Below, piece by piece: positions 8,158 to 13,531 of a DNA stretch of 64,000 nt. The DNA comes from Escherichia phage EcM-vB1. The DNA lies in the sequence record PV574017.1. One strand, 5' to 3'. The notes beneath the pieces are model-generated. The model was not told where the DNA came from, ran no database searches, and saw only the letters and a program-made list of their open reading frames with translations. Numbering within the stretch: the stretch's first letter is position 1; every line of letters begins with the position of its first letter. Position numbers and translations under genes: made by a program.

Positions 8158-8383
8158 TATTAAATCCGATCGTACAATGCTTCGCTTAAATAACATGAAG
8201 CCGGGCGTTCTATTTGAGCGTAAAGACTCTCTTTATATTAGAACCGACACACTATACGCAGATAACTATGTGAACTGTGTTGATGTGGTAACTGGAAAGC
8301 TCATGCCTTTTAAACGGGATGAAGTCTGCCAAGTACGTAGTGATCTTCACATAACCAACATAGAGGCTAAAGATGAAGATTGA
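8147..8383 (+). CDS. hypothetical protein (GTG start)
   Basis: AGGAG RBS 9 nt upstream of GTG 8147; in frame with track ORF 8039-8383. Confidence 0.35.
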   Translation: MKVNIKSDRTMLRLNNMKPGVLFERKDSLYIRTDTLYADNYVNCVDVVTGKLMPFKRDEVCQVRSDLHITNIEAKDED

Positions 8384-8624
8384 TCTTGAGATGAAAGCTA
8401 AAGAATTGTGTGTGGGTGATTTGAAACTTGGTGATGTATTCCAAGTTAAGGCAACATGTATTGATTATTACATGATCGTTCAGTTATATACACCACATGT
8501 GTCAGAGACTAATCTTCGGAATGGTTGTGTAGTGCTCAGTTTAAGCACCAATCAAGTAATGAAGCTAGATTCAAACTTACCTGTTTCAGTTATCCATGAT
8601 GCAGTAATTACCAATCGGAAGTGA
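8373..8624 (+). CDS. small protein, member of multi-copy GDVF...FW...NL-x-GS family
   Basis: ORF in track; shares motifs with 8850, 11432, 12802, 13071, 13277 ORFs. Confidence 0.45.
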   Translation: MKIDLEMKAKELCVGDLKLGDVFQVKATCIDYYMIVQLYTPHVSETNLRNGCVVLSLSTNQVMKLDSNLPVSVIHDAVITNRK

Positions 8625-8839
8625 ATATGAACATTGAAAAGAAGGTTGTTGACGAGGCTGTTCAGTTACGATCTCTTGAAACACATGATGTATTTGTGTG
8701 GGGAGGCAGTCTGTTTCAGAAATCTGCTTATGCTGTAGAGGGCGGGGTTCGTTGTTTTAATATCTTCAACAATGAGATGCAAATCCTTCCTAACTTCGCT
8801 CATGTTAATAAACTTATCCACCTTTCTATATATCAATAA
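8621..8839 (+). CDS. small protein, probable member of same family
   Basis: ORF in track; HDVF motif. Confidence 0.4.
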   Translation: MNMNIEKKVVDEAVQLRSLETHDVFVWGGSLFQKSAYAVEGGVRCFNIFNNEMQILPNFAHVNKLIHLSIYQ

Positions 8840-8849
8840 GGGCAATTAG

Positions 8850-9068
8850 ATGGAAATTAAAGTAGTTGATTATCCTAAATATGCAAATGCAAAGGACGTT
8901 AAAGGTGGTGATGTTTTCTCTTATGATAAACGTTTCTGGCTGATGCTAGAAGATAAAACCCCTGATGGTTTGTGTAAGGCTGCTAACTTGAGCAGTGGTT
9001 CTGTTGAAGTCTTCGGTCTATCAACCACTGTTATGCCACGACCTGATCTGTGTTTATCCCAAAAGTAA
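8850..9068 (+). CDS. small protein, GDVF...FW family
   Basis: ORF in track; GGDVFSYDKRFWLML...NLSSGSVEV. Confidence 0.45.
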   Translation: MEIKVVDYPKYANAKDVKGGDVFSYDKRFWLMLEDKTPDGLCKAANLSSGSVEVFGLSTTVMPRPDLCLSQK

Positions 9069-9180
9069 CGCCGACTTATAGCCCTTGTGTTTATCAGAGG
9101 GCTATGTGAGGGTGTTCCTCATTAACTTATTAATTCAGGCATATGCCACACCGCTAGGGAGAGCTTGCTCGAACATCCGG
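9065..9180 (+). other. conserved intergenic structured element, copy A
   Basis: shares GTAACGCC, a hairpin closing on GGGCTATGTGAG, GCTAGGGAGAG, a second small hairpin and CTCGAACATCCG with element at 14217-14335; both hairpins differ in sequence but keep pairing. Confidence 0.45.
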
Positions 9181-9426
9181 TGTTAGACTAAAACCTGTTA
9201 ATTTTCGAAAGACTTTCCGATATGTAGGGGTACGTATTGGTTTGGGATTCAGGAGACTTCCTAGGGGTAGGGAGTCTTCACCAGTTGGAATAAGAGATAG
9301 CTCTAGAACCTGAACTCTTAGGCAGAGAAGGTCGGCAATGAATACGCGGTCAGGGTTAGTCTACTGACTAGGGCTATCCCTTATATCAACTGGCAATAAT
9401 GCCTCCACTAACAAAGAGAGATAGGT

Positions 9427-9567
9427 ATGAAAGTATCAACCAAACGTATGAACCGCCCTGAACGTATGGATGCAGTAGCTAATGGTGCTCTGAAACTGGA
9501 AGGCTTTTGGATTCATGCAATGTCAGCCATCCGTAACAAGCAAGGTAATTGGACGTATAACAGTTAA
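9427..9567 (+). CDS. small basic protein (46 aa)
   Basis: ATG with GAGAGATAGG upstream, followed directly by terminator; below ORF-track size cutoff. Confidence 0.3.
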   Translation: MKVSTKRMNRPERMDAVANGALKLEGFWIHAMSAIRNKQGNWTYNS

Positions 9568-9574
9568 TAAATAA

Positions 9575-9605
9575 AAGGCTGCCTTCGGGTGGCCTTTGTT
9601 GTTTT
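9575..9605 (+). terminator. rho-independent terminator (UUCG loop)
   Basis: AAGGCTGCC-TTCG-GGTGGCCTT then TGTTGTTTT. Confidence 0.65.
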
Positions 9606-9648
9606 AATTAAGGGACAACTCTTACTTAAACTAACAAGAGGTGCTTAT

Positions 9649-11431: not shown

Positions 11432-11652
11432 ATGAAACTAGACTCTAAGCAGTCACTTAAAACCGTTGAGCTGTCCACGCTGCCAAACGGAAGTATTTTG
11501 GTCATGATAAACACTTCTGGATTAAAACAGACATCATAGACGATGGATATATCACCTGTGTCAATCTTTGGAACGGCTCAGTGGATGGCTATCGCCCTAG
11601 CGCAAAGGTAGTCCCTCAGCCCGATGCAAAGGCTATAGGTTTAGTTTACTAA
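11432..11652 (+). CDS. GDVF...FW family protein interrupted at a T4 run (11496-11499)
   Basis: N-terminal frame stops at 11537-11539; downstream frame carries KHFWIKTDII...NLWNGSVDG family motifs and ends just before next RBS. Confidence 0.35.
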
Positions 11653-11661
11653 GGAGCCTGT

Positions 11662-11835
11662 ATGAGTTGTTTTGGGGGCGGTGAAGTAGACGACGATTAT
11701 GACATGGAATCTAACGGTACATGTCCTGATTGTGGGTGTGAGACATGGGACGGGGTGTCTGTCTATCCTGCCTGTAGTTATTCACCAGTGATTTGTAAAA
11801 CATGCGGAGATCAACCTTGTGACCAGTCTTGTTAG
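11662..11835 (+). CDS. small Cys-rich protein (57 aa)
   Basis: AAGGAG RBS; eight Cys in CPDCGC and CKTCGDQPC arrangement. Confidence 0.4.
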   Translation: MSCFGGGEVDDDYDMESNGTCPDCGCETWDGVSVYPACSYSPVICKTCGDQPCDQSC

Positions 11836-12064
11836 TGTGTTAATAGTCTACCTGATAGGGTCAGTGGTATCAGGTGCTCTAATTAAGGTCATAGATGTTA
11901 AAGGTAATCAGTGTTTCAGAGGTTGGGATGGTGAGCCAGACCTCGGAAAGATAGCAGCTATGGTTTTCTTGTGGCCTATTATTGCTGTACTGTTTATAGC
12001 ACTTGTATCATGGGCTGCCCTTTGGGATTTCATCCTTCCTAACAAAAAGTATGAGGACTCATGA
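11819..12064 (+). CDS. small membrane protein (two predicted TM segments)
   Basis: ORF in track; hydrophobic segments SLVSVLIVYLIGSVVSGALI and MVFLWPIIAVLFIALVSWAAL. Confidence 0.45.
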   Translation: MTSLVSVLIVYLIGSVVSGALIKVIDVKGNQCFRGWDGEPDLGKIAAMVFLWPIIAVLFIALVSWAALWDFILPNKKYEDS

Positions 12065-12481
12065 CTGAAGAATTTTTAAAGTGGTTTGGTGATACCTTCA
12101 AAGAGTATCTATTCTCTCCAGAAGACTTTGAAGAACTGAAAACCTACACTTGGTTGGCTTGGAGAGATAGCCGACGAGAGATGAATAAGTAGTATCGTGA
12201 AGGATTCTTACGAGAGTCCTTTGAGATAGGACTTCAGATCTCCTATCAAACTAACATTCATGTAACTAGCCCATAAGGGCGTTACCCTTTAATAACCCAG
12301 CCCACTAAGGGGCGGGAGTTTAGTGCTGGATTGGCTTTACGCTTATTCCTACAAAGGCAACCGATTGTTAGATCTTACATGCAATATTAACTAATAGGAT
12401 AAGGGAGGATTCGTCCCCTCCCCCTATTTTATTGAATCTTTATCTAAGCAAGTCTTATATAAACGTTTAATTGGAGGATGT

Positions 12482-12793
12482 ATGAAAGCACGAAGAACTA
12501 TATGGACTCCGATGCAGATTGAAAATCTTCGGAGACTAATCAAAGAGTACTCGGTTCAAGAAGTTGCTCAGATTATGAATGTAACGGAGAATGCAGTTAA
12601 CACAGCTTGCACTAAATTCGGAATATCAAGAGCTTCAATACGAGTTAAATGGTCTAAAGAAGAAGACCAGTTCCTTATCCGTAATGCTGGGTTCATGTCC
12701 ATTCAGAGAATGGCTGACATGCTCGGTAGAAGTTATGCTGCTGTACAGAACAGGGCATGTATGCACCTTAACATTAGCCTCAAACTTAAATAG
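12482..12793 (+). CDS. putative DNA-binding protein (helix-turn-helix)
   Basis: GGAGGA RBS; segment YSVQEVAQIMNVTENAVNT resembles sigma70 region-4/HTH. Confidence 0.45.
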   Translation: MKARRTIWTPMQIENLRRLIKEYSVQEVAQIMNVTENAVNTACTKFGISRASIRVKWSKEEDQFLIRNAGFMSIQRMADMLGRSYAAVQNRACMHLNISLKLK

Positions 12794-12801
12794 GAATCAA
12801 G

Positions 12802-13029
12802 ATGAATTTTGAGCTAGTACCAAAAAGCAAAACACCCTCCAAGACTTTCTCTGACTTAGAGAATGGAGATGTTTTTCGTTTTACTGGTGACGATGTAGTC
12901 CCCAAATTCTGGATAAAAACAGGGAACATTCTGCAATGTGTGTTCGGAACTCTAAAGATATTTTCTTTCCGGTCCCTCTGTCCAATACTGTTGATCTGTT
13001 CGAATCTAAACTTATTATTCAGGGTAAGT
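12802..13029 (+). CDS. GDVF...FW family protein, probably frame-shifted near T run 12971-12974
   Basis: N-terminal GDVFRFTGDDVVPKFWIKTGN in track frame; family-like C-terminal PLSNTVDLFE only in alternate frame ending at TAA 13027-13029. Confidence 0.3.
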
Positions 13030-13070
13030 AAAATGAAGATCATCCCAAAGAAAAGGATAATACGGTACGA

Positions 13071-13277
13071 TTGGAAACAATCATTCCCGGAAACCCTTTC
13101 GTAGTTCAGAACGGAAGCGCTTCTCCTCAATATTACATGAGGGTTGAAAATGCTTCTGGTAACATCCGTATAGCCAGTGGTTGGGTTCCTGTGGTAAACC
13201 TTTCCACAGGTGTGTTATCTGTTAAAGGTCTTGACGATCAGGTAGAAATGATTCGTATGTCAGTGGTTCAGGAGTAG
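13071..13277 (+). CDS. small protein, GDVF family-like (TTG start)
   Basis: ORF in track; NLSTGVLSV motif. Confidence 0.35.
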   Translation: METIIPGNPFVVQNGSASPQYYMRVENASGNIRIASGWVPVVNLSTGVLSVKGLDDQVEMIRMSVVQE

Positions 13278-13531
13278 TGCATATGAGCATTATTAACATT
13301 AAAGTTAAAGACAAAGAGGAAAAAATCCTCCGTGTCAGAGATCTAAATATGTCAGATGTGTTCACTCTCCAAGAGTGCCAGAATCAAAAGGTTTATATGA
13401 TGACAGCTAAAAGCAGGGGTTGTCAACCTGCTGGAGCTGTTAACCTAGGCACTGGAGAACTACGTGTCATCTCTGGTGATATGGTTGTTGGTGAGAAGTA
13501 TATTAAGGCTGAAATCATCCTAACTTCGTAG
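13277..13531 (+). CDS. small protein, GDVF family
   Basis: ORF in track; SDVFTLQEC...NLGTGELRV. Confidence 0.45.
   Translation: MHMSIINIKVKDKEEKILRVRDLNMSDVFTLQECQNQKVYMMTAKSRGCQPAGAVNLGTGELRVISGDMVVGEKYIKAEIILTS

Follow-up and report, generated by a model that had tools for sequence, protein, structure and literature searches.

A family of nine small paralogous genes with a predicted SH3-like barrel fold in the predicted early region of Escherichia phage EcM-vB1

Nine small genes of one protein family lie on the plus strand between positions 8147 and 13531 of a 64,000-nucleotide stretch of DNA from Escherichia phage EcM-vB1 (sequence record PV574017.1), referred to below as the window. A megablast search with positions 8000–14000 matched 136 phage records, with Escherichia phages EcP-vB and EcK-vB at the top (99.9% identity), followed by MN03, Paul, EcoN5, Bas90, and others. 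Escherichia phage Paul belongs to the Mtkvariviridae, Gordonclarkvirinae, genus Kuravirus, and, judged by these nucleotide matches, the window comes from a Kuravirus, that is, a phiEco32-like podophage. An N4-like or G7C-like identity was considered and dropped, since the relatives are Kuravirus phages and N4 carries just one member of the family. An earlier note on this DNA had described eight open reading frames (ORFs), starting at 8373, 8621, 8850, 10168, 11432, 12802, 13071, and 13277, as a multi-copy paralogous family of 70–85-residue proteins. Searches with hidden Markov models (HMMs) place all eight in one family, with three of the starts moved to 8627, 13033, and 13283, and add a ninth member at 8147–8383 that the note had missed. 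Six-frame HMM scans of the 64-kb window found no further members elsewhere in it. The members were lettered A to I and are listed here with coordinates after frame correction.

8147–8383, plus strand: member A, 78 amino acids, GTG start; ortholog of phiEco32 gp115
8373–8624, plus strand: member B, 83 amino acids; ortholog of phiEco32 gp114
8627–8839, plus strand: member C, 70 amino acids; the GTG at 8621, used in the earlier note, is an alternative start
8850–9068, plus strand: member D, 72 amino acids; ortholog of phiEco32 gp113; the member whose structure was modelled
10168–10397, plus strand: member E, 76 amino acids when intact, as in Ec3-ASingh and PGN6866; same slot as phiEco32 gp109
11432–11652, plus strand: member F, 73 amino acids after correction; ortholog of phiEco32 gp104
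12802–13031, plus strand: member G, 76 amino acids after correction; ortholog of phiEco32 gp98; C-terminal half divergent
13033–13277, plus strand: member H, 81 amino acids after correction; ortholog of phiEco32 gp96
13283–13531, plus strand: member I, 82 amino acids; ortholog of phiEco32 gp95

phiEco32 itself carries nine members (gp95, 96, 97, 98, 104, 109, 113, 114, and 115). In the window, a Shine-Dalgarno-like motif precedes each of the nine start codons, and 13 ortholog pairs formed with phiEco32 and Bas90 differ by 65 synonymous and 21 non-synonymous changes, a ratio of non-synonymous to synonymous change (pN/pS) of 0.09. By these sequence measures, the family genes are real and their orthologs are under strong purifying selection.

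Compared one with another, the members are similar enough to be noticed in only a few cases. Single-sequence phmmer searches gave an expect value (E) of 1e-10 for D with F and 3e-6 for A with F, the similarity being otherwise weak (E of 0.01–1 for most pairs). The relationship is carried by profile searches. When each member was left out in turn and the resulting HMM was run against 1017 six-frame segments of the window, every omitted member was recovered at E of 1e-7 to 4e-3 except C, which gave an E of 0.15 and yet ranked directly behind the known members; member E, which was never in the profile, was detected at an E of 3e-5. An external-only HMM was also built from 87 outside proteins, each less than 35% identical to any Kuravirus copy. 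This model recovered 9 of 9 members among the 1017 segments, at E of 4e-16 to 4e-4, with the next segment at 0.16, and gave E of 2e-19 to 2e-6 on intact orthologs. The individual values in the window scan were 5e-16 for A, 4e-16 for B, 9e-14 for D, and 1.3e-8 for C, the weakest full-length member, while the N-terminal fragment of E gave 4e-4 (3e-5 with a member-built profile). HMM matches to the intact F and G proteins had E of 5e-14 and 4e-7, and those to H and I had E of 5e-13 and 3e-13, respectively.

The PHROG database provides an independent connection among the members. Every member in the window matches, over its full length, one PHROG of 'unknown function' (6570, 16423, 7431, 9955, 12612, 33163, 10911, 7832, and 8365), and cross-hits among these groups link the members to each other: A (phrog_16423) also hits 6570, 7832, and 7431; B (phrog_9955) hits 8365 and 12612; C (phrog_33163) and G (phrog_10911) both hit 6570; and I (phrog_12612) hits 7431, 6570, and 8365. 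At least nine 'unknown' PHROGs, which are separate families in that database, merge here into one unnamed superfamily. It shares a predicted fold, comprises 542 clusters at 50% identity, and has no entry in Pfam or NCBIfam. The multi-copy paralogous family of the earlier note is thereby borne out, and the alignment and HMM comparison that it had proposed as a check gives a significant family relationship in both the leave-one-out and the external-only form.

The motif that the note had given for the family (G-D/S-V/I-F, then F-W, then N-L-x-x-G-S/T) holds only approximately when read literally. GDVF varies among the members (GSIF, GVLF, GNPF, HDVF, SDVF), the FW pair is present in three of nine copies, with the first residue unconserved and the second usually Y, and five members (A, B, C, E, and G) have NLxxG only in degenerate form. 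The family consensus is MKI...(about 10)...v.L.dLk.GDvF.y....YMKt...(variable loop)...n[AC]VNL.tG.l..f..d..V.pv.a.lvI., in which the core motifs are G-[DE]-[VTC]-F, an aromatic residue followed by M, I, or L, and [VI]-[ND]-L-x-x-G with a fixed 10-residue gap to a conserved V. Six members (A, B, D, F, H, and I) conform well to these motifs, and the second motif is degenerate in C, E, and G. Column conservation across 128 relatives reaches 98% for G20, 99% for F23, 77% for Y30, 88% for L49, 91% for G52, and 91% for V63, and the spacing from G52 to V63 is fixed in 153 of 155 sequences. The conserved positions consist of two turn glycines together with hydrophobic and aromatic residues spread over all five predicted strands, which we infer form the core of a barrel; the family alignment contains no conserved catalytic-type or polar residues. 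The copies differ from each other in the beta1-beta2 loop (6–14 residues), in the beta2-beta3 loop (3–22 residues, with 18 in member B), and in the N- and C-terminal tails, and the Kuravirus copies are near neutral, with net charges of −2.5 to +2.7.

Structure prediction, also suggested in the earlier note, was run on member D and returned a confident five-stranded SH3-like barrel. AlphaFold2 produced the same five-stranded model with alignments of 19 and 134 sequences (predicted local distance difference test scores of 87.9 and 87.8), with low confidence only at residues 1–10 and 64–72; in the deep-alignment run, the conserved N- and C-terminal tails stayed unordered. Each member is a stand-alone protein of ~75 residues with a predicted fold of this kind. 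A Foldseek search with the model placed EF-P/eIF5A at the top (E of 4e-3, template modelling score of about 0.5), and the closest solved folds were the uL2 C-terminal domain, EF-P/eIF5A domain I, CarD, the Spt5 KOW domain, and the UvrD/PcrA C-terminal Tudor domain, with PWWP-single-stranded DNA and KOW structures also among the matches. In a viral structure library, the top matches were small uncharacterised proteins of many phages, including N4 gp21 and PaP3 ORF.65, and others came from T4-like, rV5-like, Vibrio, Aeromonas, Streptomyces, and Mycobacterium phages.

These resemblances to KOW, EF-P, uL2, CarD, and Tudor domains are at the level of fold only. Eight members and 134 relatives gave no match above threshold in Pfam or NCBIfam, a profile search of PDB sequences gave chance matches only, and aligning the family profile by hhalign to EF-P and NusG of E. 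coli, both entered by hand, gave a probability below 1%. The KOW, EF-P N-terminal, and translation SH3-like families (PF00467, PF08207) share the fold and yielded no profile match. Unlike KOW and EF-P domains, the phage proteins stand alone, are near neutral, and lack both the KOW glycine motif and the modified-lysine loop of EF-P, the equivalent of which is the most variable part of the phage family. Member B aligned over residues 8–69 with positions 8–66 of the 81-position Pfam model DUF5475 (PF17569) at 14.3 bits against a cutoff of 25 (E of 0.054), below the gathering threshold, and neither the other members nor the 134 relatives matched this model.

Members E, F, G, and H are interrupted in the window by single-base homopolymer deletions. 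Relative to PV591328, the nearest record, this part of the window differs mainly by single-base deletions. Four lie in homopolymer runs (11495, 12308, 12921, and 13050) and a fifth at 14411, and there are also two substitutions (8892 and 8929). The T-run deletion at 11495 breaks F, the G-run deletion at 12921 breaks G, and the A-run deletion at 13050 breaks H, which explains why the start of H had been placed at 13071; all three proteins are intact in PV591328. Member E is broken by a G5-to-G4 deletion near 10289 that is common to the window, PV591328, and PV591327, and alignment with relatives showed that Ec3-ASingh and PGN6866 read through this site, leaving E intact. The breaks in E to H are probably sequencing or assembly errors rather than biology. 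A Bas90 gene (locus L002, 3033–3284) was considered as an intact member E and ruled out, as it is the ortholog of window positions 10397–10648 instead.

The family extends well beyond Kuravirus. An exhaustive HMMER scan of 1.84 billion representatives returned 542 clusters, counted at 50% identity, at E ≤1e-3. Among the 150 matches listed, nearly all were 67–91 residues long, and about 14 of these top 150 were two-domain fusions of 125–184 residues. In contrast to the 8–11 copies found in Kuravirus, three other phages carry a single member each by HMM, namely N4 (gp21, E of 1e-16), LUZ24 (gp7, E of 1e-12), and PaP3 (ORF.65, E of 5e-9). N4 gp21 is located past the N4 RNAPII genes, in a region that we take to be that of the N4 middle or replication-phase genes. 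PaP3 ORF.65 lies at the genome end where the PaP3 early gene orf70.1 maps, and LUZ24 gp7 belongs to an early-gene set that has been screened experimentally (PMC4635203) and lies downstream of annotated sigma70 promoters. The family also forms arrays in unrelated phages, whose hosts are Gram-negative and probably also Gram-positive bacteria. A temperate siphophage-like contig with an integrase and an S24 repressor holds three or five tandem copies, depending on the variant, another phage contig holds four, and an SPbeta-like metagenomic contig (L012, 448–2022) holds about seven to eight domains in a 1.6-kb tandem array. The last array includes one natural two-domain fusion and an apparent split copy, and its immediate downstream neighbours are two DNA methylase genes. 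A clearly cellular context was seen only in a Tenacibaculum metagenome-assembled genome (L013, 3583–5019), where a chromosomal SprT-like metalloprotease is followed by five basic tandem repeats of the domain.

Several searches returned nothing that could be added to this set. No member was found in the first 50 kb of T4 that were scanned; tblastn with the family consensus against a phage collection gave nothing at E of 1e-3 and weak matches only at E of 10, and tblastn with a two-domain fusion gave no match. PaP3 gp70.1, an RpoS binder, was rejected as a member, being 131 residues long and encoded on the opposite strand, and two giant proteins (P0168 and P0243) with weak repeated matches only were not used as evidence.

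Within Kuravirus, the copies vary mainly by which lineages are present. The seven genomes compared have 8–11 copies each and at least 15 lineages between them. All seven contain A, B, F, H, and I, six contain D, and the distribution of the C, x1, x2, G, G', and E types varies; C is found in four and is missing from phiEco32, Paul, and EcoN5, and F has two copies in ev_rybdy8. The slot after a D5-like regulator gene is occupied by G in EcP-vB, phiEco32, and EcoN5 and by G' in Bas90, Paul, Ptacy1532, and ev_rybdy8, so that G and G' are mutually exclusive cassettes (window 12802–13031; L002 5645–5899; L018 7152–7406).

The location of the genes points to expression early in infection. Genes 69–128 of phiEco32-type phages form the early class transcribed with sigma70 (PMC4281155, PMC8948821, PMC9965538). 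As related in these later papers, macroarray and primer extension work on phiEco32 identified the right-arm cluster as early; this cluster corresponds to SU10 CDS (coding sequences) 69–125 and YF01 gp82–122, is transcribed by the host sigma70 holoenzyme from promoters at its start, and consists mostly of genes of unknown function with a 'likely' role in host takeover (PMC4281155, PMC8948821, PMC9965538). The paralog family goes unmentioned in these three papers. The earlier note had called the proteins early, and this placement is upheld by orthology and synteny to phiEco32 gp95–98, 104, 109, and 113–115 together with the published class; the window genes would be expressed early because they are orthologs of phiEco32 early genes. 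Three near-consensus sigma70 promoter matches lie upstream.

522–549, plus strand: near-consensus sigma70 promoter match, 11 of 12 consensus positions
2471–2499, plus strand: near-consensus sigma70 promoter match, 11 of 12 consensus positions
3104–3132, plus strand: near-consensus sigma70 promoter match, 11 of 12 consensus positions

The second and third fall in an ORF-free spacer of ~2 kb (about 2100–4050) and, judged by sequence, likely drive an early operon that includes the family. This layout agrees with the early-promoter description for SU10 and phiEco32 (PMC4281155). The early ORFans of LUZ24 and the phiEco32 early cluster are likewise short genes that follow strong early promoters of host type; most have no known function, and a role in modulating the host is presumed; the difference from other small early gene sets is that here one fold family supplies nine of the genes.

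Other features of the region were recorded alongside. Terminator-like hairpins occur on the plus strand within the early cluster at 4978, 6305, 6335, 9574, and 12403, and a transfer RNA gene, tRNA-Arg with anticodon TCT, lies inside the cluster at 10829–10904 (plus strand); the records of Bas90, phiEco32, Paul, and other relatives have this tRNA-Arg annotated, and that of PV591328 does not. The 98-amino-acid ORF at 7861–8157 (plus strand) is annotated 'DNA helicase' (phrog_12154) and has a hydrophobic N-terminus followed by coiled-coil-like sequence; the label looks wrong because the ORF is far too short for a helicase. The guanine-cytosine skew changes sign near 46 kb, which fits the change from rightward early and middle genes to the oppositely transcribed late structural cluster of phiEco32-like phages. 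Homologs of phiEco32 gp79 and gp78 lie at about 23442–23684 and 23681–23866 (plus strand), respectively. Both were considered as possible family members and rejected: gp79 of phiEco32, an inhibitor of transcription by sigma70 and an activator of the phage sigma factor, is helical and has no family HMM match, and gp78 of phiEco32 and its window homolog gave sub-threshold matches only (E of 0.08–0.4).

Of the three further tandem duplications listed in the earlier note, two hold up and the third is marginal at best. The ORFs at 30399–30578 and 30588–30773 (plus strand) encode tandem paralogs of 59 and 61 amino acids (phmmer E of 4e-8 in a search of all six-frame segments); their N- and C-terminal segments are hydrophobic and resemble two transmembrane helices. 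Those at 34304–34558 and 34560–34844 (plus strand) encode tandem paralogs of 84 and 94 amino acids (E of 1e-10) that are orthologs of phiEco32 gp56/gp57 and have in common a C-terminal region with the pattern 'TART.V.LR...GKFISY...PFPKG'. In the third set (28766–29380, plus strand), similarity between 28962 and 29171 is marginal (E of about 0.006–0.01), and a single-sequence search found no significant similarity of 28766 to either of them.

Given an expanded family of small early proteins, the earlier note had proposed a host-takeover or anti-defence arsenal, a role that is plausible. The only member for which a published experimental test was found is LUZ24 gp7. In that work, 13 early proteins, LUZ24 Gp7 (YP_001671880) included, were expressed in P. 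aeruginosa PAO1 and in E. coli; growth was inhibited only by gp4, gp6, gp9, and gp11, gp7 being non-toxic (PMC4635203). This result argues against toxic shut-off of the host and leaves an anti-defence role possible. Our tentative preference is for non-enzymatic binding modules directed at non-essential host factors, anti-phage defences being the leading candidates. The proteins would be synthesised as soon as the phage DNA has entered the cell, and each would bind in stoichiometric amounts to its own host or phage macromolecule by way of the loops and tails that vary among the paralogs; the paralogs may work as homo- or heterodimers. This reading is suggested by several features taken together, namely the absence of conserved catalytic or polar residues, the conserved core with variable loops and tails, the near-neutral charge, the expected early expression, and the pattern of core and accessory copies. 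Dimerisation is suggested by the natural two-domain fusions and the conserved termini that remained unmodelled. Targets among non-essential host factors appear more likely than essential machinery, since the one tested member is non-toxic, orthologs are strongly conserved, and gene content is swapped in a cassette-like manner.

A broader setting for such a role is given by the BASEL study, which described the Gordonclarkvirinae as remarkably resistant to restriction-modification, with no modification pathway or inhibitor known (PMC11990801). As this resistance is unexplained, the family genes are reasonable, if circumstantial, candidates for it. The non-toxicity of LUZ24 gp7 and the array beside DNA methylase genes in the SPbeta-like contig are likewise circumstantial pointers to anti-defence. 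A more far-reaching version, in which the family is a pan-phage cassette toolkit of SH3-fold decoys or inhibitors, each family lineage directed at a different defence or restriction system and possibly acting as heterodimers, and in which the 8–11 Kuravirus copies explain the broad resistance of the Gordonclarkvirinae to restriction-modification and other defences, is a speculative one that we would expect to be wrong.

Several points weigh against non-enzymatic binding modules aimed at defences. No member has a demonstrated partner or phenotype, and non-toxicity is established for one distant member only. The predicted SH3-like fold is generic and would say little about the target, and the top structural neighbours of the model (uL2, EF-P, KOW, CarD, and the UvrD C-terminal domain) bind the ribosome, RNA, or RNA polymerase, which may fit takeover or nucleic-acid readings at least equally well. 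The strong purifying selection seen among ortholog sequences would be atypical of an arms-race protein. A housekeeping role in phage development is possible as well, since N4, LUZ24, and PaP3 hold single copies and N4 gp21 lies beyond the RNAPII genes, in what we take to be the middle region.

The same structural neighbours are the starting point for a different account, in which the barrels are host-takeover inhibitors that mimic or compete with KOW, CarD, UvrD C-terminal, or EF-P-type SH3 domains on RNA polymerase or the ribosome and thereby redirect early host transcription or translation. The closest folds (uL2, EF-P/eIF5A, CarD, Spt5 KOW, and UvrD/PcrA Tudor) all come from proteins that bind one or the other, and the early class to which the genes belong is taken in the literature as serving host takeover. 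However, neither P. aeruginosa nor E. coli showed a growth defect when LUZ24 gp7 was expressed (PMC4635203), the proteins have no sequence relation to the EF-P or NusG KOW domains in the hhalign comparison with hand-entered sequences and no Pfam match, phiEco32 already has a helical and unrelated regulator of RNA polymerase in gp79, and a single target hardly explains nine different copies. On balance, we regard host-takeover inhibition as unlikely.

Small barrels of the Sm, KOW, or PWWP-like kind could also bind nucleic acid and regulate phage mRNA or DNA as repressors, RNA chaperones, or replication accessories, with each paralog specific to a site. SH3-like barrels often bind RNA or DNA, the PWWP-single-stranded DNA and KOW structures were among the matches to the model, the five domain repeats of the cellular SprT-like protease are basic, and N4 gp21 is among the genes that we take to be middle or replication-phase. 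The phage copies, however, are near neutral (−2.5 to +2.7), and the alignment contains no conserved basic patch. Direct binding of nucleic acid seems rather improbable for this family.

The word 'expanded' in the earlier note also invites a reading of the genes as a recently amplified arms-race arsenal, produced in this lineage by tandem duplication and fast diversification. The tandem blocks at 8147–9068 and 12802–13531, the range of 8–11 copies among close relatives, and the duplicate of F in ev_rybdy8 are what such a process might leave. The sequences themselves run the other way. Paralogs within a genome are only 4–32% identical, and the best in-genome match of a copy (27–32%) is no closer than its best non-orthologous match outside (33–54%); orthologs are nearly identical between phages, their pN/pS of 0.09 giving no sign of rapid diversification; and the variation consists of the presence, absence, and replacement of cassettes rather than of sequence divergence. 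Recent amplification is therefore already largely refuted by the sequence comparisons, and we give it little credence. Because paralog identity is low relative to that of outside relatives, the family appears instead to consist of old lineages that are kept or exchanged as cassettes, which the comparison suggests within the limit that most of the outside relatives are metagenomic and of unknown provenance. That the members are chance resemblances or non-coding ORFs, an idea fed by the weak single-sequence scores of most pairs (E of 0.01–1), is already refuted by the highly significant profile searches, the 542 outside relatives, the purifying selection, the ribosome-binding sites, and the confident common fold.

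The family is now delimited well enough for testing and merits a new domain-family entry. If the proteins prove to be ordinary accessory factors, better annotation would be all that is gained. The orthologs in phiEco32 and in Bas90, which infects K-12, are tractable candidates for the indifference of the Gordonclarkvirinae to restriction systems, and small early phage proteins are the chief source of host-modulating and anti-defence functions yet to be discovered.

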